Part shown: positions 5,342 to 56,705 of the stretch, one piece after another | Layout of the letters: every line of letters begins with the position of its first letter | How positions within the stretch are numbered: position 1 is the stretch's first letter | Assembly: GCA_002685855.1 (NCBI GenBank) | Contig: NYYS01000018.1 | Location: 12,859 to 76,858 of the forward strand | Direction of reading: 5' to 3' | Length of the DNA stretch: 64,000 nt | Origin: Candidatus Woesearchaeota archaeon | GTDB taxonomy: Archaea; Nanobdellota; Nanobdellia; Woesearchaeales; GCA-2685855 | Position numbers and translations under genes: made by a program | The notes under the pieces: model-generated | What the model was told of the DNA's origin: nothing | The model's database searches: none | What the model saw: only the letters and a program-made list of their open reading frames with translations

Positions 5342-5428
5342 TACTTTGTAAAAAAGTATATATTATTTTTAAAACTTGTCCTTTTTACTAAAAAAATACG
5401 CGTCCTCCCTTAAATACTCCCTCCTCCC

Positions 5429-5438
5429 TTTATAATAG
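5429..5438 (+). promoter_or_regulatory. archaeal TATA box (TTTATAATAG), ~30 nt upstream of the aspartate racemase ATG; leaderless-type promoter
   Basis: Sequence 'ccctTTATAATAGag' sits ~27-36 nt upstream of the ATG at 5465. Confidence 0.45.
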
Positions 5439-5464
5439 AGATAAAAAAGGTGTGGTGTCAGAAC

Positions 5465-6181
5465 ATGATAATAGGAATACTCGGCGGATTAGGACCAGAA
5501 GCAACCAAAGACCTCTATGAAAAAATAATCCAGACTACACCCGCCAAATGCGACCAGGACCACATCGAAATCATCATCTACAACAACCCAAAAATCCCCG
5601 ACCGAACACAAGCCATCCTCTACAACGGAGAAAACCCCCTCCCCCAACTCATCCACACAGCAAAAACCCTCGAAAAAGCCGGAGCAGAACTCATCGTCAT
5701 CCCCTGCAATACTGCACACTACTTCCTCGACAAACTCCAGCCTCGCACCCCTGTCCCCATCCTCAACATGATAGAAGAAACAGCAGCCTTTATCCACCAC
5801 AACTACCCCGACACAAAAAAAGTAGGCATCCTCGCAACCACCGGCACAATCAAAACCAACCTCTACCAGAAGACACTCCAAAACACAGGAATCATGCCCA
5901 TCACCCCGTCCACCTATGAACAGGAATCACTGATCATGGAAGCAATCTACGGAACACAAGGAATAAAAAGAGGAAAGAAAACCCAGCCCAGAAAACTCCT
6001 CCTTAAAGCAGCACAATCACTCACCCAGCAAGGAGCACAACTCATCATCCTCGGATGCACAGAGATCCCCCTCGCACTCAGACAAAAAGAGATCAGCTCA
6101 GTCCTCATCAATCCCGCAAACATCCTCGCAGAAAAAATCATTACACTAACACAAACAAAAAAACAAAAGGTGATAATCTAA
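5465..6181 (+). CDS. aspartate/glutamate racemase family (aspartate racemase)
   Basis: 'IGILGGLGPEAT', 'VIPCNTAHYF' and 'ILGCTEIPL' are two-Cys racemase signatures. Track ORF starts at a GTG (5450); the ATG at 5465 is more likely. Confidence 0.75.
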   Translation: MIIGILGGLGPEATKDLYEKIIQTTPAKCDQDHIEIIIYNNPKIPDRTQAILYNGENPLPQLIHTAKTLEKAGAELIVIPCNTAHYFLDKLQPRTPVPILNMIEETAAFIHHNYPDTKKVGILATTGTIKTNLYQKTLQNTGIMPITPSTYEQESLIMEAIYGTQGIKRGKKTQPRKLLLKAAQSLTQQGAQLIILGCTEIPLALRQKEISSVLINPANILAEKIITLTQTKKQKVII

Positions 6182-40820: not shown

Positions 40821-42359
40821 CTATCGATACCGAGAAAGATCCGGCCCAACCTCCTCCTGACCCGCCTGCCTTTTCACATCAGCAGCAACCTTCCTGCCAA
40901 GCAACCCCTCCAACCGGGAAAGAGACACACTCTTCACACCTGCAACATCCTTAATACCACTCCGAAACAACTTCCTTGCTCTTACACGACCAATATTCCG
41001 CAACCGCAACAACCCCAAAAGCTCCTCCTTTGCACCATGCCGCAACCGCGTCCGCAACACCTTCAACTCTTTCAGAATATCATGAAACTTCAACAACACA
41101 CACATCTCCTCAGCCGCATACACCAACCAATCCGCAGCATCCAACTTTGCATGAATCTCCCCCGGACGAACATTCAACGCATTCAATAATTCTTCCTCGC
41201 TCTTCTCATTCATCCACTCATCAAAAAAGAAAGCAGTCTTCACACTATTCAAAAAATCCTCATACTCACTACTATGATCCATCGGCACAGAAGTAATAAA
41301 CACCTCCTCATTCAACCCCACAAGCTCCTCCACCCAATCCAACTCCTTAACACGAACACGCAACAACGGCCGCATCTCCAACGTAGAACTCACCATCTGC
41401 AAAAAACTAAATACATTCCTCTTCTTCCCTGTCGCCCGCTTCAAAGCCTCAATAATCAACTGAGCCGTATACGGATCCAAGTACAACTCACTAACCCTCT
41501 TCCCAACCGGCGTAGCAACAAGAGACCCCTCTTCACCCAGATCAGAAGCAGACACAAACCCATCATCCTTTTTTCCACCCTCAACACGAATAAACTCCCA
41601 CTCCTCCAACTGCTCCAACGTCTTTCCAATCAACCAATGAATCTTTTCACTATCCCCATAACTATGCGCATAAAAAGTACGATCAAAAAAATCCTTCAAA
41701 GCAGACTCAGACAAACAATACTCAGTAGCAATCAACGTCAACACATACGTACGAAACACCGGCTCAACCGCCAACTTCGACAAAATCTCCTCCGGCTCAC
41801 CCTCAACATACCGCTCCCGAATCTCCTTCTTCTGCCCATCAGAAACAGCAATCGTAATCGCCTGCCCCTCAGTCTCCTTCCCCGGCCTCCCCGCCCTCCC
41901 AATCTGCTGATGATACTCCAACACAGGAATCGGACTCATCCCCCACCCCCCACTATACCGTTTCAGATCCCTCACCACAACACGAAACGCAGGAAGATCA
42001 ACACCCATCGCCAAACTCGGAGTCGAACAGATAACATGCAAACGAGAATCCCGAAACCCCTCCTCAATCAACCTCCTCTGAGAACTCGTCAACCCTGAAT
42101 GATGAAACGCAATCCCCCGCTCAACACACTTCGCAAGCCGCTTACACTGCCGCGTAGCAGAACCCACCCCCTTCAACACCTTCTCTGAAAGAACAGCCAG
42201 CTCAGACAGAACAGGAAGCTTCAACGCAATCTGCTCCGCCTGCGACTCAGCACCCCTCCGCGTATTACAAAACACCAACGCCTGCCGATCCTGCTGCACA
42301 GTATCCAAAGCAATATTCAAAACCGCATCCGGCGTTGTCTGGGGAATAGGGATCTTCAT
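40821..42359 (-). CDS. Hel308/Ski2-type helicase, C-terminal portion only (RecA2, WH, ratchet, HhH); N-terminal ATPase domain absent
   Basis: Starts at RecA2 ('QALVFCNTRRGAE'). Motif VI 'QQIGRAGRPG'. C-terminal HhH 'LRLRNIGRVRARKL'. Stop codon 12 codons upstream of the ATG in frame; TATA-like box ~35 nt upstream. Confidence 0.7.
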   Translation of the reverse strand: MKIPIPQTTPDAVLNIALDTVQQDRQALVFCNTRRGAESQAEQIALKLPVLSELAVLSEKVLKGVGSATRQCKRLAKCVERGIAFHHSGLTSSQRRLIEEGFRDSRLHVICSTPSLAMGVDLPAFRVVVRDLKRYSGGWGMSPIPVLEYHQQIGRAGRPGKETEGQAITIAVSDGQKKEIRERYVEGEPEEILSKLAVEPVFRTYVLTLIATEYCLSESALKDFFDRTFYAHSYGDSEKIHWLIGKTLEQLEEWEFIRVEGGKKDDGFVSASDLGEEGSLVATPVGKRVSELYLDPYTAQLIIEALKRATGKKRNVFSFLQMVSSTLEMRPLLRVRVKELDWVEELVGLNEEVFITSVPMDHSSEYEDFLNSVKTAFFFDEWMNEKSEEELLNALNVRPGEIHAKLDAADWLVYAAEEMCVLLKFHDILKELKVLRTRLRHGAKEELLGLLRLRNIGRVRARKLFRSGIKDVAGVKSVSLSRLEGLLGRKVAADVKRQAGQEEVGPDLSRYR

Positions 42360-42424
42360 CGTACAAAACGTTTAAAAAAAGAAAGCAGTTCACCTATAAA
42401 AGATTTGGGTCTGCAGTACAGCAA

Positions 42425-42454
42425 CAGGCTCAAGCCCACTATGGGGCTGTAGTG
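42425..42454 (+). repeat. 30-bp direct repeat copy 1 (includes first 12 nt of tRNA-Pro plus 18 nt of its leader)
   Basis: 'caggctcaagcccactatggggctgtagtg' is exactly repeated at 42516-42545. TATAAAAG box at 42395-42402 precedes copy 1. Confidence 0.6.
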
Positions 42455-42515
42455 GGTAGGCACCTTTCGCTCGCGTTGCTTTAAAGGTGCGCGAAATGCG
42501 TGGGTTTCGCCTATG

Positions 42516-42545
42516 CAGGCTCAAGCCCACTATGGGGCTGTAGTG
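42516..42545 (+). repeat. 30-bp direct repeat copy 2 (functional 5' end of tRNA-Pro)
   Basis: Exact copy. Continues into the full tRNA. Confidence 0.6.
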
Positions 42546-42638
42546 TAGTTTGGAAACACCCCTCCTAACAGAGGATGTTGAACACTATCACTGGTGGTTC
42601 GGGGCCGCCCGACCGGAGTTCGAATCTTCGCAGCCCCA
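42534..42638 (+). tRNA. tRNA-Pro: tRNA-Pro(CGG) with a ~32-nt non-canonical intron between D-arm and anticodon stem
   Basis: Acceptor GGGGCTG/CAGCCCC + discriminator A. D-arm GTGT-AGTTTGGAA-ACAC. Anticodon arm GGTGG-TTCGGGG-CCGCC (U33, anticodon CGG, G37). Variable CGAC. T-arm CGGAG-TTCGAAT-CTTCG. Extra 42560-42592 not accommodated by the cloverleaf. Confidence 0.5.
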
Positions 42639-42745
42639 TTTTTTCAATCTCACATATTCCTAATAATAATCTTTGCAGTCGTAGACAGGATCCAGGTCAT
42701 AATAAAACTAAGAAAATAAGAAAAGAAAAAAAGCAGGAGGAAGTT

Positions 42746-44152
42746 CTATTCAGAATCCACAAGCTTTTGAAAAAACCCTTTGAACGTTATCCAGCCATCT
42801 CCTCCAGATTCAATTTCCCCTCTTCCTTCCCAGACAACAGATTCCCAGGTATGCGTTCGAATGAAGAATCCTCCCCAGCCCTTATAGGTGTGGTTACCAA
42901 TATCCTCCCATTCTCCGTGGGTGCTAAAATCGACATCAGCTCCATTTGTCCAGAGAGTTCCTTCACCATCTCTAACCTCGAAATCTCCTGTTCCTGCAAC
43001 TTCTACTCTTCCCTGTCCCCAGTAGTTTACACCTCCGCTTCCTTCCCTTCGAACTCGTGTCCGATCATAAGAGAGGAACGGGTCGTAAACTACTTCAGGA
43101 GAATGTAATCCGGCTATCCTTTCAGCAATCTCTGAAATATTTTCTGTGTTCCAATAATTTTGCCGAGCATCGACTTCATAAGGCTGATCATTCCAGATTC
43201 CAACCGGGGACCAGATGTTGCTATACCTTATCAGGTGTTTTGTTCCTTGTCTTATCTTATCTCCAACAATAGAAATATCCCTTTCCTCATTATCGAAGAA
43301 ATTACTATAAAAGATAGAAACATTTGAGGAATTCTCAATCAGCAACCCTGTATCCACATCGGTTACAGTCAATTCGCCAATGTCTGCCTCAGGCGCATTT
43401 ATTAGTGCAATACCTGTACTATATATCTGGCCATGTTGTATACGAACTTCTTCAATCTCAATATTTGCTTCATCAGACCACTCATCTGAGTATTCTATCC
43501 ATATGCCGTTAATATCAAAAATTGAAATAAGCACATTATACCCTATTTCTACAAAATCAACGTCCTGTGTGAAAATTCCTGTATCATAATTTTTAATTGT
43601 AAGATGATGAATCTCCATGTTATCTGCATCTCTTATATAAACACCCGTCCCATACCACGCTCCAATGCCATTAATAAGGCCATCATAGATACTAACTTCA
43701 TCAACATCATTGGTCTCGACACCATATCTCACATTTTCAATTTCAACTTCTTCAATCAAGAGAGAGTCAGAATCTAAAACGACAATTCCAGAATTCATAT
43801 TTCCCAAAAAACTATTTTCGAAATAAAGATCATCAACATACTGGGCATCGATTCCTTTTGAAAAATCTTTAAGAATACAATCTTCAATTTCAACATCCTC
43901 AGTGTCTCTGATAAAAAAACCCGTACTTTCATTATCTCCAACTAAAACAGTATCTTCACACTCAATTTCAATATCATGATCTCCTGTCACAAAGATCGCT
44001 TCATTAAGCTCATACTCACCACTACAAAAGTTCGTATCTTCTGTTATAGTCATCCCAGAATAGGGCTCAACACAATCTGCTGAAACAGAAGAAGAAAATA
44101 AAACATTCAAAATAAGTATACAAAACATGCCGAAAAAGAGTCTCTTCATCAT
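42746..44152 (-). CDS. secreted right-handed parallel beta-helix repeat protein (pectate-lyase/NosD-like fold)
   Basis: Signal peptide. Repeated 'D.E.I..C.I....GI' beta-helix rungs ('NVEIHHLTIKNYDTGIF', 'DFVEIGYNVLI'). Balanced composition, flanked by two intron-containing tRNAs. Confidence 0.5.
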   Translation of the reverse strand: MMKRLFFGMFCILILNVLFSSSVSADCVEPYSGMTITEDTNFCSGEYELNEAIFVTGDHDIEIECEDTVLVGDNESTGFFIRDTEDVEIEDCILKDFSKGIDAQYVDDLYFENSFLGNMNSGIVVLDSDSLLIEEVEIENVRYGVETNDVDEVSIYDGLINGIGAWYGTGVYIRDADNMEIHHLTIKNYDTGIFTQDVDFVEIGYNVLISIFDINGIWIEYSDEWSDEANIEIEEVRIQHGQIYSTGIALINAPEADIGELTVTDVDTGLLIENSSNVSIFYSNFFDNEERDISIVGDKIRQGTKHLIRYSNIWSPVGIWNDQPYEVDARQNYWNTENISEIAERIAGLHSPEVVYDPFLSYDRTRVRREGSGGVNYWGQGRVEVAGTGDFEVRDGEGTLWTNGADVDFSTHGEWEDIGNHTYKGWGGFFIRTHTWESVVWEGRGEIESGGDGWITFKGFFQKLVDSE

Positions 44153-44242: not shown

Positions 44243-44462
44243 ATGGGCCCGCCGTGACTTTCAGCAATCCCTCGCACAAGGGGCTTGAGCTGCAGGCGAA
44301 ACCCCTGCATCTGTTTGAAAGCAGAGCTCTCAAACATGCCAGAAACCTGAATGGTTTCTAAGCATTTGCCCACTTTCTCGCGAGAAAGTGTTTTGAACAC
44401 GGGACCACTCGATCACCGATGGAATTATCAGTCGAGCACTCCACCAGGCTAAGCTACGGGCC
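44243..44462 (-). tRNA. tRNA-Ile: tRNA-Ile(GAU) containing two introns: a 12-nt intron at canonical 37/38 and a ~134-nt intron in the T-arm (between nt ~60 and 64)
   Basis: Minus-strand read: GGGCCCG-TA-GCTT-AGCCTGGTG-GAGT-G-CTCGA-CTGATA[ATTCCATCGGTG]A-TCGAG-TGGTC-CCGTG-TTCAAAA-CAC[~134 nt]..CACGG-CGGGCCC-A. Perfect 7-bp acceptor, 5-bp anticodon stem, T-loop consensus. Mature length 74 nt. Confidence 0.65.
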
Positions 44463-44711
44463 CATACCGTCCCCTGTCGGACTTCCATACAATCTAACGA
44501 TATTCACGTAGCCTGGAGGACTTCACAAAGTGAATGTCCTCTTGTCTTCTTCTACGAGATCTTCGAAAGATCTCTTTTGAACCGACGACCTTGTGGTCTC
44601 TTCACCCTGTTTTCAGGGGTAACAGCCACACGCTCCACCGCTAAGCTAAGGGGACCTGGTTCCGAGAACTATAATCCTTTTTATAAAGCTTACCAAAAAC
44701 ACTCCTCTTTT

Positions 44712-46176: not shown

Positions 46177-47793
46177 ATGAAAAAAGAGGCCATACTACTT
46201 ATTTCAGTACTTTTAATTCTACCAATAACCTTAGCCGTCGACTGTGCAGATGTTCCTTATCCAGGAGCAGACGGATATCTCAACGAAAGCTATACACTAA
46301 CAGAAAATATTACCGCAAGCTCAAGGGGTCAGGTAAACAGATGTCTTAAGGTAACTGCAGATGATGTAACCCTTGATTGTAATGGATATACAATCGACAG
46401 CAAAAACATCAAACGCTCCAGCTTTTCAAGCATCGGCTATGACAGAATAACCGTCAAAAACTGTAACTTTATCAACTCAATAAGTAATGCTTTTGGCATC
46501 AATGCAGCAGAAGATGCACAAATACTCGACAACACCTTTGCAGATGATGATGCAGGATGGTCTGGTGACGGTGCACTTATTTCAGGAAACACCTTCCGTG
46601 ATCGATTTGGTATTGACGGTGATAATGCTGTAATAGAAAACAATGAATTTATAGTGAACCTGGGTATCGGCCAAGTGGCATTAAACATAGGTGGCTATTC
46701 CACGAATAATCTCATACGTTTCAACACCTTTCGTCAACCCGAACAAATAGGCGCAGGATTAAAACAAGGGCATGCCATCTATACTACCACTAGCGCTCAC
46801 TTTAATAATATTACAAACAACACTATTGAAGGGTTTAACACAGGAATAAATTTCTGGACATTTGCAGGATATACTGAGATCTACCATAACTACTTTGCGA
46901 ATAACTCTGTGAACGATTCCAACTTTGCAGTTCACGGAAACTATGGAGATCTTAACGAAGTTGCTGATAACACCTTTGCAGCAAACACCGTTGGGGTCTA
47001 TTTTGAAGGATCTGTTGACAATGTACTGTGGGGAAACAATTTTCAGTTTCCTGACGTTGTAAACTACTGGGATACAGACAACAACCATTACTGTAGTGGA
47101 GGAATAGAGAACGACTATGAATTTATGGATAATCTCCTGAATATGACCTTAGAAGAGTTTCATTCCTTTGTTATACAAAAAGAAGCAGATCTTTCCCTGC
47201 TCCACCTTGAACTTCCGTTCACCTACGAACTTCTCAACGAAACAAACAACTACTCTGTGAACATTACCTTGCCAGACTGTAATCAGACAAAGGATAATCA
47301 ATCCAACCAAAGCCTGGCGATGAGTGGAGATTTTCTGAAAGAGCTTTCAGACCCTGTCCTTTTTGATCTCGTGGAGCTTCAAAATGGCTTTCTCATGGCT
47401 CTGGATCCTTGGGATGGATTTAAATACTTCTACAATGAAAATGCCTGGAACGGCGATGTTATGGTCCATCAACCAAACGGACAAACAGATTACTGGGTGT
47501 GGGAAGTCCATTCAACACCAAACACCTACCGGGTTTGGGTCTATATTCCTGTTGACCCCATCTATGTCGGAAGCTATGCTAAACAAGCAATGTACTATAT
47601 CAAACATGCAAACGGCATGGACAAAGTAATCCTGGATCAACGCCTGGCAGGAAGTGATTGGGTAAACTTAGGAGACTATACTTTTGATGAATCCAGCTAT
47701 CAGGGTGTCGCCCTAATTGGAGGAAACGGACGAGGACATACCTTGGCAGATGCATTTAGGGCAGAAAGTATTGGGCCGCCACAGTACGATTAG
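46177..47793 (+). CDS. secreted parallel beta-helix repeat protein (538 aa)
   Basis: Signal peptide 'AILLISVLLILPITLA'. Repeated 'N..I.NN.F' beta-helix rungs. Many N-x-S/T sequons. Balanced composition; AT-rich promoter region upstream. Confidence 0.5.
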   Translation: MKKEAILLISVLLILPITLAVDCADVPYPGADGYLNESYTLTENITASSRGQVNRCLKVTADDVTLDCNGYTIDSKNIKRSSFSSIGYDRITVKNCNFINSISNAFGINAAEDAQILDNTFADDDAGWSGDGALISGNTFRDRFGIDGDNAVIENNEFIVNLGIGQVALNIGGYSTNNLIRFNTFRQPEQIGAGLKQGHAIYTTTSAHFNNITNNTIEGFNTGINFWTFAGYTEIYHNYFANNSVNDSNFAVHGNYGDLNEVADNTFAANTVGVYFEGSVDNVLWGNNFQFPDVVNYWDTDNNHYCSGGIENDYEFMDNLLNMTLEEFHSFVIQKEADLSLLHLELPFTYELLNETNNYSVNITLPDCNQTKDNQSNQSLAMSGDFLKELSDPVLFDLVELQNGFLMALDPWDGFKYFYNENAWNGDVMVHQPNGQTDYWVWEVHSTPNTYRVWVYIPVDPIYVGSYAKQAMYYIKHANGMDKVILDQRLAGSDWVNLGDYTFDESSYQGVALIGGNGRGHTLADAFRAESIGPPQYD

Positions 47794-47944: not shown

Positions 47945-48456
47945 GGGGAAAACCAGAGCCAAAGCAAGATCTTTCTAGCCTGAGCGATCTCGAACTCTTC
48001 CAGGAACTCGGAAAAAGACTCGCAGAAAAACACCAAACAGATCCTTCCACTCTTCTCATCCCCACACCCACTCCCCAAAACACCATCCCTCTCCCCATCT
48101 TTACAGGATCCCTTTCTCCCCTAGAAGCCGTTGTCAAATACCTCCACGAAAACCACAAACTCTCATTCACCGCAATCGGAATCAAACTCAACCGCTCGGT
48201 AAAAACAATCTGGCAAGCCTACCAAACAGCAAAAAAGAAGATGCCAGAACCCTTCACACCCTTCAAAGGAGAAACACTCCCCCTCTCAGAACTCTCAAAC
48301 AGAACCTTCTCACTCTACGAAAACCTCGTTCTTTACCTTTCAAAAAAACACCGCCCGAAAGAGATCGCCCTCCTCATCAACAGACCCCAACGAAACATTA
48401 ATACAATCCTTAGCAGAGCACGAAAAAAAGATCAACAAACAAAAACAGAATCATGA
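47932..48456 (+). CDS. small HTH protein with sigma-70 region-4-like helix-turn-helix segments; candidate regulator of the downstream giant gene
   Basis: 'LSFTAIGIKLNRSVKTIWQAYQTAKKKM' and 'EIALLINRPQRNINTILSRARKK' resemble region-4/LuxR-type HTH. Overlaps the start of the 2750-aa ORF by 4 nt. Confidence 0.35.
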   Translation: MQKNRGKPEPKQDLSSLSDLELFQELGKRLAEKHQTDPSTLLIPTPTPQNTIPLPIFTGSLSPLEAVVKYLHENHKLSFTAIGIKLNRSVKTIWQAYQTAKKKMPEPFTPFKGETLPLSELSNRTFSLYENLVLYLSKKHRPKEIALLINRPQRNINTILSRARKKDQQTKTES

Positions 48457-51400
48457 ATAAAAAACAAAAAGCAAAACAAATACCCTCAGAAGGGAAATTA
48501 CTCCTACTAGTCCTATTCATACTTACAACTACACTTATCTACTACATCCAGCCAGCCTTCATCGCATTCATCATCTACGACGAAACCAGCATCACACTTC
48601 AACTCAACCAAACAATAACAGAAGATACATTCCTGCCTCTCGAAATCGGAAAAGTAGACTCCATCCATATCAAAGGCCATCTTATAGGAAACGGAACCGC
48701 AACCATAAAACTCGACCAACCAGGAAAAAACCTTCTCATCTATGAGAAAACAGGCTCTAAAGTAAATCCCCTCATCCCCAACGATCCACCCTCCGACTCA
48801 CCCCTTCAAACAACAATAACCTACGGAAACAACCCAAACTTCGACACAGACAACAACGGATGGGAACTCACCACTAATGCAATCGACTACACCGTAGAAA
48901 CAACCAACACCCAAAAATACAACCAAAGCACACTCTGCACTCGCTGGGCACTTAACAACCAATACATAGAATGCAACGGAAATGCAATGTGCTGCCTCTT
49001 CACAGGCATTGAACAAAGAACAGAACAATGGAACGCCCCTTTCAGCCTTCACGACCAACTCCTTGGAGTAAAACAAGCAAACCTCATCACAGCACAACTC
49101 ATCTCAACAACAATCAACTACACCAACATCACAACACAACCCGGATCAACACAATCCCTTCCAGGGTATTTCATCGACAACACTCTCCAATCGCCAATCG
49201 ACCACTGCGGAGAAACCTGCACCTTTGAAGGAACCCAGGATCCCCGTCTAAAAATAGAACTCCACAACGCAGTCCTTTACATCGACACAATCACCTACAC
49301 CCCCTACTCCGAAAACAAACCACCCACACTCCAAAAAAGCACCCACAAACTCTACTCCGGAGCAACACTCAAATTCACAGAACTCTTCCACGATCCAGAT
49401 AAAGACAATCTCACAATAACAATCACAAACACAACAAACCTCACACTAACAAAAACCCACCAAGGATATAAAATAGAAGGAAAAAAAGGAAACTACACCC
49501 TTGAAATAGAAGCCAAAGACCACCGCTACACAATAACAGAAAAGATAAACCTCACCCTCAAGGATTTCAACCTGGAAACCCTCCTCAACAAAAACAAAAA
49601 AGAAAAAACTGATGAAAAACCCTCTGTAAAGATAACCGGCCCCGCCGAAATCAAAGGAATCTACAAACACCCTCAAAAACAAAGCCCCTTCAAAGGAATA
49701 CAATTCGGCGCATTCATCCAAGAAGGAGATGTAGAAATAGGAATAAAAAATAAAGGCCTGCTCCTCCTCAAAGATGCAAACTACGCCGGCCTTGAAGAAA
49801 TACAGGTCAGAACACCCCCAAGCAGAAGATATGCCACAGACATCATCGCAGTAAACGACATCCAACTCAAAGAAGCAGTCTTTGTACTCCCCAAACAATC
49901 ACCAATAACCCAAATACAACACTGCCCCAACTGGAACTTTGAAGAACAAAGCTGTCCAAAATGGGAAGATGCAGGAGTGGCATTTGCACAAAACCAAACC
50001 CATGTCTGGTGGGTAGCAGACCACTTCTCAGGATGGGTAGGACTCAGCTACGGCTTTGACGATTTCGAATATGATGACGATAATAACTATTGTACAGACA
50101 CACCATCTCTTGAAAACTGGATGACAGTTTCCTGTGAAGCAAATGCGGGCTCGTTCAACCTCACAACAGACAACTGCTACTTAGGATCCTCCTGTGGAAA
50201 TGTAACCAACACAGACTCACAAGATGCTGCAAACGATGTAACAATAGTCTACAACTCCAATCTCTCTTCAGCAGAGATCGTCGACCAAAGAGTCTACTTC
50301 AAAGAGGACTGTGCAAACCCCCTCTCCGGAGGAAACGGAGATACCTACATAATGGGATTAACAAGAGGATCAGGAGCAGCAGTTGCCAGAATGGGCTTCA
50401 ATAGTGAAGGCCTTCTTGGTTGCCAACGAAGAAATATGTCAGACAGCCTAGCAAACTGCGCAGGACAAACAGCACAAAACCTCACCTGTGGACGATGGTA
50501 CTATCTCGAAATCCATTACGACACAAGAGTAAACAACCTTACCTGCTATGTCAACGGAACACCCTTCTGCTCAGAAGAAGGAGTAGTCATATTCAGAGAC
50601 AACGTAACAATAGAGGCCATAGGAATCCTCCCAACTTCAGACTACCAAAACAACGAAACATTCTTCCTCGACGAATACCACACCGCCGACAAATACCTTG
50701 GAGGCTACCCTTGGGTAGAAGATCTCAACCACACAACCAGATTCGTCACACCCGGCACCGACCTAACAATAAACGCAACAATCTACGACAACGATGTCAT
50801 CAACGGAACCCTCGGCACCGTGCTACTAGAAGGAAACTGGAGCGGAGTAATGACCAACTATACCCCCACAAGTTCAGGATCCAAATACTTCTACAAAGTC
50901 GGACGAGGAAACTTCTCAAGCAACGACTCAGTAGGCTACCGCTGGTATGCAAACGACACCATCAACCAACAATACTACTCCCCCCTGCAAATAATCACAA
51001 TAGAAAACAGATTCATCCTTGACACAGATCAAAATAACCTCACAGATCTCTTTCTCAGCAGCCTTCTTCTCGCAGACGTAGACAACGACTCAGACCTCGA
51101 CCTCTATCTCTCAGGAGCAACAGCAATACCTGGCGGAAACGTATTTTCCGGACTCTACCTCAACAACGGATCTGGACTCTTCACAGACACACTTCAAGCC
51201 AACTTCATTGCACTCAGAGAAGGATCATCCACCTTTGGCGATACAAACAATGATGGACTCCCCGACCTCATAATCTCAGGATTAAATAGCGGATCAAGAT
51301 ACACAAGAGGCTATATCAACAATCTATCAAATCCAGGAACATTCTACAACGACACCTCATCGAGTTACAATCCTCTTTCCCTTAGCAGTTTTGCACTTGC

Positions 51401-54400
51401 AGATTATGATGCAGACGGAGACTATGATCTCATCGCAACAGGACTTTTTGCAGCCGGAGAAGGAGCAGGAATTAACACATTTACAGATGGTGTATCAGCT
51501 CTTGATACAACCCATATCAACAACTTCACAAACGTATCCCGTCCAGCACTTCTATTAGCAGATATAGATAGTGATGGAGACCTTGACATCTTCATGACAG
51601 GACAAACAGAAGCCACCCCCCTCTACACAGGAATCTACCTCAACAACGGCTCAGGAAGATACATACAAGACCAATCACAGGCAAACCTCCTCGCAATCTT
51701 TAATGGAGCAGCAGTAGCAGCAGACATAGATGCAGATGGAGACATCGACATCATCATCGCAGGAGACTCAAACGAAACAACCACAAAAAACTACACAATG
51801 GAGGTCCTCCTCAACGACGGAAATGGAAACTTCTCAATAGACAGTCAACAAGACAACCTCACCGGACTCGATTTTGCTTCACTCGCAGTAGGAGATATCG
51901 ACCTCGACGGAACAATAGACATCTTTGCAATGGGAAACACCTCAAATGGACCTGCTGCATTCACCTATCTCAACAACGGATCCGGCTACTTCAAAGAAGA
52001 CGAATCATTCTCAGCAATGCCCCTTCATTACGGAAGCGCAGCCCTTGCAGATATTGATAACGACGACGACCTTGATCTTATCATCTCAGGAACAAACAAC
52101 ACCTATCGTAACTACACTCTTGTCTACAAAAACCAGATCAACAGAAACATGACCAACCGCCCCCCTGTAGCTCCCACAGGCATCGACTGGAACAGATCCG
52201 GAAGCAACGGCAAACTCGAACTAAACTGGTCCATAGGAACAGACAATGCAACAGGAGCAAACGCAGTCACACCTGACAACGCAATAACCTATCACCTCAG
52301 TCTCGGAACAACTCCCGGCGCATCAGACATCATGAGCAGATCCTATGGAGGATTCTCCAACCCGAGCAACGGCCACCTTGGAAACAGACTCCAATCAAGA
52401 AACCTCTCACTCTACCTCGAAGGAACCTACTATGCTACCATCCAATCAATAGACGCACAAGGAAAACTCTCCGACGACAACCTAACATTACTAACTAATC
52501 AACCACCAACACATTCAGCCCCCATACTCAACACCTCCCCCCTCAACAACAACCGAACAAGTGAAAACTTTACCTGCTACAACCAAACAACCTACGACTT
52601 CGACAACGACACAATCGTAAACGCCTACAAGTTCTACAGAAACAGCACTTCAGCAGTCATCGTGCAAGCAAGCTTTGAGGACAACAGCACAACCATTGAA
52701 AACTTCCCACCGCTCACAGAATCAGGAACAAACTATACAAACGGCTACCAAGGAAGAGGAATCTACATAGATGACAACGACCAACTCAACTATAGTGCAA
52801 CCTCCCTTCTTACAGCTGAAGAGGCCACGATCGAGCTCTGGACACGCTTCGACTGGGACCCCGGAGCAACCGGAGACACAAACCACACACTTATATCCTT
52901 CGGAAACCAATCAAGCTATCAGAATACAGGAATACTTTTCTACAACGACGTATACAATCTCCTCGCCCTTACCCTATTTGGTGAAACAGGATCTCCTCGT
53001 ACAGTAAGCTACGGAATAAGCGATATCAACCCAAACGAATGGCACCACATACTCGTATCATGGGACTACAACAACGGAACAGGAATAGAGATGGAACTCT
53101 ACCTTGATGGAGCTCTCGTAGACAACACTCCCTCTTCCCAAACAGCCCTTACTGTGAATTCAGGAGGAACAGGAGGAGACGGTGTCTTCATAGGGAGATA
53201 CAACGACATAGCCTATGCAAACGCAACAATTGACGAACTCTACATCTGGAACGTTCAGATGGGCCTTGAAAAAGCAGTCCAAAGCAATGCAACAAACTAC
53301 GGCTTTGTTCCATCTGGATCAACCAACAAAAACGAAACCTGGACCTGCGAAGTAACACCTCAGGACAGATACACAAGAGGCCTCCCATCAAACTCCAGCC
53401 AGATCCTAATGCTCTCACAACTACAAGTTGATCTAAACGACCCAGACAACGGAACAACAAACCAGCTTTTCACAAACGTATCCTACAATTGCAGTGCAGA
53501 ATCCTCTTCAGTTTTATCAAATATAACCCTCTATCCTGACTTCGAAGGATGGCAACAGAACGGAACAACCACCACCTCAGGACTCAACAACTCCATAAAC
53601 ATAACAAGATCCTACGAAGGATTAATCACAGGAGATAAACAACGCTTTACAGACGGAAGAATTCTCTGGAACTGTAGAGTAAATGATTCATCAGGAGAAT
53701 CAGCCATAGCAACAACAAATTCCACATTCAGCAACTGGGACCTCGGAAACCACTCCAACACTTCCCTCATCAACAACCGCCTCAGTCTCATAAAAAACAC
53801 CTCAAACGAATATGAAAACCTAACAGGAACATTCGACAGCAGAGTCTTCGATGGCGGTGTAGGAGCCTACTGGGATAACTTTTCATGGAAACCTCTCACA
53901 CCCTATGGTGTTGGCCTCTTCAACACCACAAACATACTCTATCACTTTGACAACTCTTCAGATCTGCAAGAAGACAACGGAACCTATACCGATGCAACAC
54001 TCCAGGGCACCAACTGCTCATCAAGCGGAACATCGGTTCCACTATTAGACACAGAAAAGATCTTCGGAACATTTGCAGTCGATTTCGACGGAACAGACGA
54101 CTATATCTCCTGTAATGACACAACTTTATTAAACCTTTCAGGAATATACTCGATCTCGTTCTGGATCAGAACCAATGCAACAAACGTTCCCATATTCGCA
54201 AAAAATGATTATGCAGGAACTCCTGCAGGTTTCCAATTCCAAATAACCTCAAACGGCACAGCAGCATTCAAGGCAACACGATCAGGAACAACAATGTACC
54301 TAGAAGGAACAACAAACATATCCGATGACAGATGGCACCACATCTCAACAAGACACATACAACTTGTCATGCCCGGACCATCATTATCACAGAACATATC

Positions 54401-56705
54401 TCTTTATGTTGATGGAGTATACGAAGCAGGAGCTATAGGTGCAATATTTTTCAATCTTAAAACAGCAGCCAGACTTGAAATAGGAAGAAACGACACCTCC
54501 TACTACGACGGACTAATTGATGAGCTTTCAATAACTTCTTTAATGCCCGAAAAGAACCATAGTTACGAATTCGAACGAGGCCTCTCAAACTTAACATTCC
54601 AGGTACGAAGCGATGCAGACAACGCCAGCTGGCCCGCCCACCTCGGACCAGACGGAACAGCAAACACCTTCTTCACAAACTGGACACACTCCGAATTAAA
54701 TGTATCCAAAAACCGCTACTTCCAATACAGAGTCTTCCTCAACTCATCACGAAACAGCATCACCCCAGGACTCGAACGAGTACTCATAAACTATACACCT
54801 AACCCCCCACCAAACTTTGGAAATGTAACTCTCCAGAACAACTTCCATCTCTTTGATGGAAACGGAATAGACCTCGGAGCAGTCGTTGTAAACGATACCT
54901 ACATCGACAACGGAACAAGTGATGGAGGATCAAATGCAACAAACTACAATAACCAAAGCCAAATGATCATGATGCAATTTAACTCTACAGATAGAACAGA
55001 AAGACGCGGCATCTTCGCATTTGAAACCGACCAGGTAAAAATTGTAAACATCTCTAACGCCACCCTAGAACTATTCGCAATAGCAGTTAACCAGACACTT
55101 CAGAACATAAGTCTTCATAGGGTAACCTCTACCTGGAACGTCGACGTAGTAAGCTTTATCAACAGAACAACTTCAGGACTATGGACAACACCTGGAGGAG
55201 ACATTACAGCAGCAGAAGAAAGTTGGACAAACCTAACAACAAGCAACAGCTGGCATAACTGGACAATAACCAATATCGTCCAAAACTGGCTCAACGGAAG
55301 CTGGTCAAACCAAGGAGTACTACTCAAACCATCAGGATACGGAACAAACAAAAACAGCCAATGGGCAGACAGCTCAAGAAGATACTTAAATCCTCGCCTC
55401 GTAATCCGCTGGAACATTCCCTCCCTTTCAATCGTCGAAAACCTTAACACAACACTAAACCTATCACTCTACTTTTCCGACACATACGGAGAAGAACTCA
55501 ACTATACTGTAAACGCAAGCTCAAACTTCACCACCTCAATCGACCAGACAACAGGCATCGTAAACATAAGCCCGCAAGCAGGCTTCATAGGTAATGGAAC
55601 ACTCATCGCATCTGCAACAGACGGCTACCAATCTACAAACAGCAACAACTTCACCGTAAACATACGAGCAGACACACCATCAATCATACTCAACGCATCA
55701 CCTGACCTTCCAAACGCCACACAAAACCTCACCTGTAACATAACAGCTGCAGATAACCAAACCGCAAACCTCACCGTAGAATGGTACTGGTATAACAGCT
55801 CAACAGTCTTCAATTCAGGAAACACAACCGTACAAAACAACACAGAAACCACTATCGCCACTGTAAACTCTGCAAACACCCTAAAAGACCAAGTCTGGAA
55901 CTGCACCGCAAGAGTAAACAGAAGCATCCGCTTCTCACCCTATGTAACAGATAGCCTCACGATTGTAGGAACCCCTCCCTCTACGCCCGTACCCCTCACA
56001 CCAACAAATGGAAACACAACCTTCCGTGACCGCCAGGTTAACTTTACCTGGCAGGCAGCCACAGACGTCGACAACGACTCAATAACCTATGCAATAGAAG
56101 TCAACAACTCCGTCTGCCCAAACATACGAAACGACTCAATCAACACAACCTACTACCTCTCATCAATACAACTCTGTACAGACGACGAAGCAGCCTCCAA
56201 CCTCTACTATTGGAGAGTTGTAGCTAGTGACGGAACACAAAACGGAACCTATTCCTCAATATTCAACTTTTCCATAGAACCCTATGTAACAATAACAATA
56301 GATCCTAACAGTGTAGGATTCGGAACAGGCTATGGAAGAGGAGCGACAAACGACACAACAAATGATAGTCCCCCGCCCTTCACAATACGCAACGATGGAA
56401 ACGTTGTCGCAAACCTGACAAACATAACTGCAAACCAAACACTCTGGGGAAGCTCAAGCGCAGGACTCGGAACACGCTACATGAGAGTACGTGCCTCAAA
56501 CAGCACAGAAGCAAACAGCTACAACGACTCAGGATCGATCACAAACTTCACAAACCTTAACTCATCCATCCCAAACGTCATTGCACAACTCAACTACAAC
56601 GACAGCAGCGACGAAGTAGACGTAGATCTCTCAATCGAAGTACCTGCTGACGAAGTCGCAGGAGCAAAAAACACCACAATACTATTCATATGGCAACAAT
56701 CATGA
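48453..56705 (+). CDS. giant (2750 aa) secreted/surface protein: N-terminal TM/signal, FG-GAP (integrin-alpha-like beta-propeller) repeats, two LamG/ConA-like lectin domains, many Ig-like beta domains, very rich in N-glycosylation sequons
   Basis: Seven 'LADxDxDGDxDL..SG' FG-GAP/VCBS-like blades (51.06-52.10 kb). LamG-like 'TIELWTRFDWDP...WHHILVSWDYNNG...ELYLDGALV...DELYIWN' and 'YSISFWIRTNAT...WHHISTRH...SLYVDGVY'. More than 150 N-x-S/T sequons. Confidence 0.7.
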   Translation: MNKKQKAKQIPSEGKLLLLVLFILTTTLIYYIQPAFIAFIIYDETSITLQLNQTITEDTFLPLEIGKVDSIHIKGHLIGNGTATIKLDQPGKNLLIYEKTGSKVNPLIPNDPPSDSPLQTTITYGNNPNFDTDNNGWELTTNAIDYTVETTNTQKYNQSTLCTRWALNNQYIECNGNAMCCLFTGIEQRTEQWNAPFSLHDQLLGVKQANLITAQLISTTINYTNITTQPGSTQSLPGYFIDNTLQSPIDHCGETCTFEGTQDPRLKIELHNAVLYIDTITYTPYSENKPPTLQKSTHKLYSGATLKFTELFHDPDKDNLTITITNTTNLTLTKTHQGYKIEGKKGNYTLEIEAKDHRYTITEKINLTLKDFNLETLLNKNKKEKTDEKPSVKITGPAEIKGIYKHPQKQSPFKGIQFGAFIQEGDVEIGIKNKGLLLLKDANYAGLEEIQVRTPPSRRYATDIIAVNDIQLKEAVFVLPKQSPITQIQHCPNWNFEEQSCPKWEDAGVAFAQNQTHVWWVADHFSGWVGLSYGFDDFEYDDDNNYCTDTPSLENWMTVSCEANAGSFNLTTDNCYLGSSCGNVTNTDSQDAANDVTIVYNSNLSSAEIVDQRVYFKEDCANPLSGGNGDTYIMGLTRGSGAAVARMGFNSEGLLGCQRRNMSDSLANCAGQTAQNLTCGRWYYLEIHYDTRVNNLTCYVNGTPFCSEEGVVIFRDNVTIEAIGILPTSDYQNNETFFLDEYHTADKYLGGYPWVEDLNHTTRFVTPGTDLTINATIYDNDVINGTLGTVLLEGNWSGVMTNYTPTSSGSKYFYKVGRGNFSSNDSVGYRWYANDTINQQYYSPLQIITIENRFILDTDQNNLTDLFLSSLLLADVDNDSDLDLYLSGATAIPGGNVFSGLYLNNGSGLFTDTLQANFIALREGSSTFGDTNNDGLPDLIISGLNSGSRYTRGYINNLSNPGTFYNDTSSSYNPLSLSSFALADYDADGDYDLIATGLFAAGEGAGINTFTDGVSALDTTHINNFTNVSRPALLLADIDSDGDLDIFMTGQTEATPLYTGIYLNNGSGRYIQDQSQANLLAIFNGAAVAADIDADGDIDIIIAGDSNETTTKNYTMEVLLNDGNGNFSIDSQQDNLTGLDFASLAVGDIDLDGTIDIFAMGNTSNGPAAFTYLNNGSGYFKEDESFSAMPLHYGSAALADIDNDDDLDLIISGTNNTYRNYTLVYKNQINRNMTNRPPVAPTGIDWNRSGSNGKLELNWSIGTDNATGANAVTPDNAITYHLSLGTTPGASDIMSRSYGGFSNPSNGHLGNRLQSRNLSLYLEGTYYATIQSIDAQGKLSDDNLTLLTNQPPTHSAPILNTSPLNNNRTSENFTCYNQTTYDFDNDTIVNAYKFYRNSTSAVIVQASFEDNSTTIENFPPLTESGTNYTNGYQGRGIYIDDNDQLNYSATSLLTAEEATIELWTRFDWDPGATGDTNHTLISFGNQSSYQNTGILFYNDVYNLLALTLFGETGSPRTVSYGISDINPNEWHHILVSWDYNNGTGIEMELYLDGALVDNTPSSQTALTVNSGGTGGDGVFIGRYNDIAYANATIDELYIWNVQMGLEKAVQSNATNYGFVPSGSTNKNETWTCEVTPQDRYTRGLPSNSSQILMLSQLQVDLNDPDNGTTNQLFTNVSYNCSAESSSVLSNITLYPDFEGWQQNGTTTTSGLNNSINITRSYEGLITGDKQRFTDGRILWNCRVNDSSGESAIATTNSTFSNWDLGNHSNTSLINNRLSLIKNTSNEYENLTGTFDSRVFDGGVGAYWDNFSWKPLTPYGVGLFNTTNILYHFDNSSDLQEDNGTYTDATLQGTNCSSSGTSVPLLDTEKIFGTFAVDFDGTDDYISCNDTTLLNLSGIYSISFWIRTNATNVPIFAKNDYAGTPAGFQFQITSNGTAAFKATRSGTTMYLEGTTNISDDRWHHISTRHIQLVMPGPSLSQNISLYVDGVYEAGAIGAIFFNLKTAARLEIGRNDTSYYDGLIDELSITSLMPEKNHSYEFERGLSNLTFQVRSDADNASWPAHLGPDGTANTFFTNWTHSELNVSKNRYFQYRVFLNSSRNSITPGLERVLINYTPNPPPNFGNVTLQNNFHLFDGNGIDLGAVVVNDTYIDNGTSDGGSNATNYNNQSQMIMMQFNSTDRTERRGIFAFETDQVKIVNISNATLELFAIAVNQTLQNISLHRVTSTWNVDVVSFINRTTSGLWTTPGGDITAAEESWTNLTTSNSWHNWTITNIVQNWLNGSWSNQGVLLKPSGYGTNKNSQWADSSRRYLNPRLVIRWNIPSLSIVENLNTTLNLSLYFSDTYGEELNYTVNASSNFTTSIDQTTGIVNISPQAGFIGNGTLIASATDGYQSTNSNNFTVNIRADTPSIILNASPDLPNATQNLTCNITAADNQTANLTVEWYWYNSSTVFNSGNTTVQNNTETTIATVNSANTLKDQVWNCTARVNRSIRFSPYVTDSLTIVGTPPSTPVPLTPTNGNTTFRDRQVNFTWQAATDVDNDSITYAIEVNNSVCPNIRNDSINTTYYLSSIQLCTDDEAASNLYYWRVVASDGTQNGTYSSIFNFSIEPYVTITIDPNSVGFGTGYGRGATNDTTNDSPPPFTIRNDGNVVANLTNITANQTLWGSSSAGLGTRYMRVRASNSTEANSYNDSGSITNFTNLNSSIPNVIAQLNYNDSSDEVDVDLSIEVPADEVAGAKNTTILFIWQQS

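Follow-up and report, generated by a model that had tools for sequence, protein, structure and literature searches.

In the current analysis we have identified a tRNA-Pro(CGG) gene, encoded on the plus strand of a 64-kb stretch of DNA (referred to here as the window) from a Woesearchaeota-like DPANN archaeon, which is divided by a short insert in its D-loop and is preceded by a leader carrying an exact duplication of the 5' end of the gene. The locus probably represents one functional tRNA-Pro(CGG) gene, interrupted in the D-loop by a BHB intron, with a leader that holds a recombination footprint built from sequence of a tRNA intron family. The intron-split gene itself belongs to a known type of tRNA gene disruption in archaea and does not constitute a new system.

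The 3' end of the gene lies at position 42638 of the plus strand. The tRNA-like sequence is continuous with the second copy of the duplicated segment and terminates in CAGCCCCA, which is directly followed by a run of six T residues (42639-42644) that is likely to serve as an archaeal transcription terminator. A search of all 64 kb with ARAGORN at default settings returned zero tRNAs, and Rfam searches at gathering and permissive thresholds revealed no tRNA in the 64-kb window, the permissive matches being noise only. Once the insert is removed in silico, tRNA-Pro(CGG) is called by ARAGORN: the joined segments 42534-42553 and 42586-42638 give a canonical cloverleaf with a standard D-arm (AGUUUGGUA loop). 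On the basis of this spliced sequence and of the alignment with orthologs, exon 1 (42534-42553, plus strand, GGGGCTGTAGTGTAGTTTGG) corresponds to tRNA positions 1-19 and exon 2 (42586-42638, plus strand) to positions 20-73, the latter comprising the remaining D-arm, the anticodon arm, the variable loop, the T-arm, the 3' strand of the acceptor stem and the discriminator A. The anticodon CGG is located at 42600-42602 and the CCA is absent from the encoded gene. A scan of metagenomes with a pattern composed of anticodon loop, T-loop and acceptor has identified six tRNA-Pro(CGG) genes (L007-L012) with exons nearly identical to those of the window gene, which is contiguous and co-linear with all six in the alignment. 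The first-pass annotation of this DNA had described a tRNA-Pro(CGG) with a non-canonical intron, and both the ARAGORN result on the spliced sequence and the orthologs bear this out.

The boundaries of the intron are set by the orthologs. Five of the six are without the 32 nt at 42554-42585 (AAACACCCCTCCTAACAGAGGATGTTGAACAC, plus strand, G19/U20 junction) and read uninterrupted from GTGTAGCTTGG into TATCACTGGCGG; since these intron-less genes align straight across, the intron is confined to exactly this interval. At the identical junction the sixth ortholog, L008, is interrupted by an intron of 17 nt. Archaeal BHB motifs are recognised by a 4-bp helix with two 3-nt bulges on opposite strands and with helices flanking them. 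A pattern search for such motifs pairs GUUU (42548-51) with GAAC (42580-83) as the central helix, with a 5' bulge GG/A and a 3' bulge AC/U (the stroke marking the splice site) and a 4-bp inner helix formed by AACA (42555-58) and UGUU (42576-79). The outer helix is the D-stem and is relaxed, with a 3' bulge of 2-3 nt and a U13-U22 mismatch. The central helix of L008 is GCUU/GAGC, so that D-loop base 16 has changed together with the intron base to which it pairs (U-A in the window, C-G in L008). Forcing the BHB of the D-loop intron in a constrained fold costs 3.7 kcal/mol over the MFE, and the same test applied to the T-loop introns of the neighbouring tRNA-Ile and tRNA-Asn genes gives 1.3 and 2.3 kcal/mol. 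With a cloverleaf restored on removal, boundaries defined by orthologs and a BHB present in the predicted fold, the insert has the properties expected of a BHB intron, and sequence comparison and modelling together indicate that it is a genuine intron with a slightly relaxed BHB.

An intron of about 33 nt at 42560-42592, near position 26, had been proposed earlier for this gene. ARAGORN accepts this splice, yet it is contradicted by the orthologs and no BHB fits it. The first bases of the intron, AAACAC, mimic the 3' strand of the D-stem, and it is because of this imitation that the intron was misplaced by eye.

Sites of non-canonical introns in archaeal tRNA genes include 20/21 and 59/60 (PMC4090602), and an increase in tRNA gene disruption has been reported for DPANN lineages, Woesearchaeota among them (PMC5829648). 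Individual descriptions of such introns are few for Woesearchaeota-like hosts, the latter source giving the trend only. The intron described here resembles the BHB introns of Thermoproteales, Nanoarchaeota and other DPANN archaea in being short, in having a 4-bp central helix with one bulge on either strand, located 3' of the helix strand in each case, and in restoring the cloverleaf on removal. Its D-loop site is near the documented 20/21 and the neighbouring tRNA genes use the documented 59/60 (PMC4090602). It differs from them in its exact site, 19/20, and in its relaxed outer helix.

Two further intron-bearing tRNA genes are encoded on the minus strand downstream. The tRNA-Ile(GAU) gene (44244-44463), which is missed by Rfam and called by ARAGORN only after in-silico splicing, has a 12-nt canonical intron at 37/38 (44425-44414) and a 134-nt T-loop intron at 59/60 (44391-44258), with the BHB helix UUCA/UGAA. 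The tRNA-Asn(GUU) gene (44468-44655) has a 22-nt canonical intron (44619-44598) and a 94-nt T-loop intron at 59/60 (44575-44482). In both T-loop introns a perfect hairpin of 8-9 bp follows right after the 5' splice site. The tRNA-Asn gene lies upstream of tRNA-Ile with a gap of 4 nt and is preceded by a TTTATAAAAAGG box at about 44689-44678; the two genes are probably dicistronic. As only 4 nt separate them, a 5' endonuclease activity must exist in the host. In the metagenomic contig of the ortholog L007 (Ga0315535_1006390), a tRNA-Ala(CGC) gene with an intron of about 35 nt in the D-arm, around 21/22, precedes tRNA-Pro(CGG) at about 5400-5610 in tRNA orientation, and D-arm introns seem to be common in this clade.

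The region upstream of tRNA-Pro(CGG) contains an exact 30-bp direct repeat (42425-42454 = 42516-42545), the sole exact long repeat in the 64 kb, for which the chance expectation is about 2e-9, calculated as (64000^2/2)/4^30. Its composition had been noticed before and is confirmed by the sequence: each copy comprises 18 nt of leader and nucleotides 1-12 of the tRNA. Copy 2 (R2, 42516-42545, plus strand) contains the actual leader (42516-42533) and the true 5' end of the gene as placed by the ortholog alignment, and copy 1 (R1, 42425-42454, plus strand) is a duplicate of both. Between them is a spacer S of 61 nt (42455-42515, plus strand) that folds as a self-contained rod-like stem-loop with paired ends GUAGGC/GCCUAU (-23.9 kcal/mol, z -2.4). 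An Rfam search of the spacer gave no match, and the possibility of a C/D-box or other known sRNA in spacer or intron was rejected for want of boxes and of Rfam support. R1 gives rise to a 9-bp hairpin (42434-42457; -13.6 kcal/mol, z -2.65) in which its 5' part is paired with its 3' part and the 3 nt that follow. When the cloverleaf is enforced, a 9-bp helix between R1 (42449-42457) and the leader of copy 2 (42525-42533) is predicted beside the acceptor stem. The z-scores of folds across the leader region are modest (-1.3 to -3.4).

The sequence 3' of copy 1 has no similarity to the tRNA, and copy 1 therefore cannot build a tRNA beyond nucleotide 12. It was also considered by inspection as an alternative 5' exon or D-arm (GUG-GGUAGG-CAC) and was rejected, since A14 and a canonical D-loop are missing and no BHB links it with the shared 3' splice site. 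A tandem duplication followed by divergence was likewise discarded, since beyond either border the 30/30 identity gives way to none at all and the flanks upstream show no significant similarity.

If the gene started at copy 1, which would supply nucleotides 1-12, the 91 nt up to the register of copy 2 would be a second intron. An A/T box does precede copy 1, the 91 nt include a stretch homologous to a genuine tRNA-Ile intron, and the ends of the spacer are paired as in many introns. In-register excision would, however, demand splice-site sequences that are identical and not complementary. The pattern search found no proper BHB for in-register removal of 91 nt, and the best candidates are G-U-rich helices with 4-nt bulges that lie 21.5-23.1 kcal/mol above the MFE. 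The sole BHB-like motif around S (h 5 bp, H GUAG/CUAU), by which 42455-42516 would be removed, has a cost of 21-23 kcal/mol. Set against the 1.3-3.7 kcal/mol of the three non-canonical introns tested, these costs argue that the leader insert is no BHB intron, and we regard a second intron at this place as quite improbable; the mature product would be the same either way. With an insert that is not spliceable, the mature 5' end must derive from copy 2 through 5' endonucleolytic trimming.

The leaders of split tRNAs resemble introns, as in Caldivirga and Nanoarchaeum, and the leader in the window does resemble one. The first-pass annotation had likened the arrangement to the leader of a split or permuted tRNA, in which copy 1 would be the 5' piece of a trans-spliced or permuted molecule. 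This interpretation is hardly credible: the gene is contiguous, co-linear with its orthologs and gives a normal cloverleaf after one splice, copy 1 carries only 12 tRNA nucleotides, and no complementary partner for the sequence following copy 1 is present in the window.

The intervening sequence is related to an intron of tRNA-Ile. A hairpin core (GGGTTTCGCC...GCAG.CTCAAGCCC; 42496-42528, plus strand), which spans the junction of S and R2, matches a segment (44281-44310, minus strand) within the 134-nt T-loop (59/60) intron of tRNA-Ile(GAU) with 85% identity over 33 nt (E 0.004-0.008) and in the same orientation relative to the gene. The extended local alignment with this intron scores 56, compared with 24.1 +/- 4.6 for shuffled sequences (0/500). 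Both copies of the core fold as a hairpin (-16.8 kcal/mol, z -3.4, for the core in the leader), with 1-2 stem pairs that differ by compensatory changes. Homology of the whole spacer to the tRNA-Ile intron was considered and rejected, the significance being limited to the 33-nt core and the flanks alone being not significant. Matches in the L010 contig to the intron hairpin of tRNA-Ile and to a second GGGGCTGTAG were dismissed as chance similarities within coding sequence. As the S/R2 junction recurs in the tRNA-Ile intron with the hairpin kept, it can be considered a native unit of the intron-family hairpin, and R1, which holds only the 3' arm of that hairpin, is most simply a secondary partial copy. 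The best-supported account of the leader is that a rearrangement brought in, or expanded, intron-family sequence.

Two A/T boxes are potentially involved in the transcription of the gene. A/T box 1 (GTTTAAAAAAAG; 42371-42382, plus strand), a candidate TATA box of the tRNA transcript with a predicted start at about 42402, resembles the TTTAAA-type boxes found 33-37 nt upstream of the orthologous tRNA-Pro genes. A/T box 2 (TATAAAAG, 42395-42402), which had been pointed out before as a strong box upstream of the first copy and is indeed present there, is ambiguous in direction. Read on the plus strand it predicts a start at about 42425, the first base of R1, and read on the minus strand it is well placed for a divergent helicase-related gene whose ATG is at 42359. 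The start position, about 42402 or about 42425, is thus uncertain because the two boxes lie in an intergenic region shared with the helicase gene. The distance from the TATA box to the start is usually about 26 nt in archaea, and the boxes of the orthologs, at 33-37 nt from position +1, imply leaders of about 3-7 nt. In the window neither copy of the repeat has a TATA box at this distance (-33 to -37). No T-run of at least four residues occurs between 42425 and 42533, and read-through to the tRNA is therefore possible.

In the reading that we favour, a single intron-bearing gene with a rearranged leader, transcription would proceed from the A/T boxes at 42371-42402 through R1, the 61-nt spacer, the leader and the tRNA, and would end at the T6 run. 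A structured leader of about 110-130 nt would then be removed at 42533/42534 by an RNase P-type 5' endonuclease, and the archaeal splicing endonuclease would, as expected from its family, cut the 32-nt intron at the relaxed BHB, with ligation of the exons. The CCA would be added post-transcriptionally. Copy 1 would have no coding role and would be the footprint of a past rearrangement in which some 91 bp came to separate the tRNA from the promoter region, with duplication of 30 bp across the leader/tRNA boundary; part of this insert would be of the same sequence family as the hairpin of the tRNA-Ile T-loop intron. Several observations count against this explanation. The box expected at -33 to -37 is lacking for either copy, leader bases -1 to -9 are predicted to be paired, which could hinder RNase P, and the homology to the tRNA-Ile intron is solid over 33 nt only. 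In addition, 30/30 identity is surprising in a copy taken to have no function, and points to a very recent event, to selection or to gene conversion.

Under another explanation, R1 and S would make up a structured leader that is under selection, such as an element for processing or stability or a co-transcribed small RNA, and selection or gene conversion would keep the copies identical. The 30/30 identity of a copy that has no role in the tRNA is in favour of this. The stable hairpins, the 9-bp long-range helix between R1 and the copy-2 leader next to the acceptor stem, and the conservation of the hairpin core with compensatory changes at a second locus are in agreement with such a role. The absence of an Rfam match and the modest fold z-scores (-1.3 to -3.4) speak against it, and nothing similar is found in any of the six orthologs (0/6), the leaders of which extend to only about 3-7 nt. 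A selected leader is therefore considered improbable.

The repeat had also been interpreted as an attachment-site scar next to a truncated Hel308 gene, that is, as the trace of a mobile element that was integrated at the tRNA gene and was nearly all deleted later, with 61 bp left. The divergent ORF at 40821-42359 (minus strand, 512 aa) contains Helicase_C, archaeal helicase domain 4 and a weak HhH match, and no N-terminal RecA/DEAD domain was found in it by Pfam. Its closest relatives are Woesearchaeota/Nanoarchaeota proteins with at most 58% identity, and no identical protein is on record. Hundreds of homologs from these groups share a length of about 510-550 aa and cover 96-99% of the ORF, which is therefore not truncated by an insertion; the short form, a stand-alone protein of about 520 aa, is conserved across Woesearchaeota. 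In L001, L013 and L014 the helicase gene is likewise free-standing, with upstream neighbours that vary; tRNA-Pro is absent beside it in L001 (51% identity) and in L013 and L014, which contain the two best helicase homologs. In L014 the gene upstream of the helicase homolog encodes a PLD-like protein and no N-terminal half of a helicase.

Integration of SSV- and pNOB8-type elements into archaeal tRNA genes duplicates the att sites. The repeat in the window resembles such duplications in being an exact direct repeat that overlaps a tRNA gene end, the classical signature of integration; it is unique in the window, and relatives differ in the order of genes upstream of the helicase gene, which is in favour of an integration. 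It differs from them in that the repeat is composed of leader and only 12 nt of the 5' end and that neither an element nor an integrase is present. Pfam analysis of the 17 neighbouring ORFs at 28.7-48.5 kb reveals housekeeping and surface proteins and no integrase, transposase or other mobile-element gene. The gap between the repeats is only 61 bp, and a matching repeat at the other border of the 42.7-44.2 kb segment was not found, there being no third copy in the 64 kb. Neither the repeat nor the hairpin core is matched in the IMG/VR viral collection. Furthermore, the 3' end of the spacer and the leader form a unit that recurs in a tRNA intron, which a random remnant of a deletion would not explain, and the support once drawn from the helicase gene is void. 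A lost integrated element is consequently unlikely. What survives of the attachment-site interpretation is its weakened, generic form, a recombination footprint of some kind; an att scar proper is possible but unsupported.

Among the neighbours, the ORFs at 42746-44152 (minus strand) and 46177-47793 (plus strand) contain beta-helix/NosD-like domains, and a single ORF of 2750 aa occupies 48453-56705 (plus strand); together they suggest a cluster of large surface proteins. The strand asymmetry of the window is very strong: the GC skew of the plus strand lies between -0.005 and -0.56, with most 2-kb bins lower than -0.25, and the AT skew is mostly positive. The asymmetry is uniform whichever strand the long ORFs are on, as over the genes at 38-42 kb (minus strand) and the ORF at 48.5-56.7 kb (plus strand). 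The segment 14001-16000, with a GC content of 0.31 against about 0.44 elsewhere and with a reversed AT skew, may be intergenic or foreign.

The closest precedent for the arrangement is the tRNA-Thr-F / tRNA-Thr-II locus of Caldiarchaeum subterraneum, a documented case of a 5' tRNA fragment upstream of an intron-bearing tRNA and, as such, a point in favour of integration (PMC3293823). In both loci a 5' fragment of the tRNA together with upstream sequence is directly repeated upstream of a full gene that has a non-canonical intron on the D-arm side, at 24/25 in Caldiarchaeum and at 19/20 here. In Caldiarchaeum the repeats flank a 1.8-kb interval that contains a transposable element carrying a putative recombinase (Sugahara et al. 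2012, PMC3293823), and empty-site variants occur in the population (PMC3293823). The window locus is unlike this one in having 61 bp between the repeats, no recombinase and an intervening sequence related to the intron of another tRNA. The six orthologous loci show no such duplication and are too distant to count as empty sites.

The lineage of the window is known from metagenomes only, and the arrangement of repeat, spacer and repeat could in principle be an assembly artefact or collapsed strain heterogeneity that is found in no single genome. An artefact would have to create both the repeat-to-spacer and the spacer-to-repeat junctions, which simple chimeric joins do not make, and the second of these junctions is independently supported by the paralog in the tRNA-Ile intron. 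We therefore consider this explanation very improbable.

A more specific proposal is that the 91-bp module is the fresh footprint of a mechanism by which sequences of archaeal tRNA intron families are transferred from one tRNA locus to another. The 'transposition' of tRNA introns in Thermoproteales (Fujishima et al. 2010), in the form in which it is summarised in PMC4090602, is similar in that related non-exon sequences are found in different tRNA genes of one genome, here the intron of tRNA-Ile and the locus of tRNA-Pro. It differs in that the second copy in the window is not an intron and is located in the 5' leader before position 1, flanked by a 30-bp duplication. Such a mobile sequence would have landed in the leader and not in an exon, with a 30-bp target duplication. 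The size of the duplication suggests staggered cleavage or an RNA- or cDNA-mediated event, and one boundary of the duplication coincides with one of the two predicted transcription start sites. Movement of this kind is put forward here as a rather doubtful possibility.

The evolutionary significance of the locus is modest. The analysis cautions that reading by eye can misplace an intron that mimics a stem. Owing to their non-canonical introns, all three tRNA genes of the window (Pro, Asn and Ile; five introns in total, two of them canonical) escape both ARAGORN at default settings and Rfam, and tRNAs reported as 'missing' in DPANN archaea are therefore probably hidden and not absent. The locus is a DPANN addition to the few cases in which a 5' fragment of a tRNA is found beside an intron-bearing copy, and the intron-family hairpin shared by an intron and a leader bears on the spread of archaeal tRNA introns and of split-tRNA leaders.
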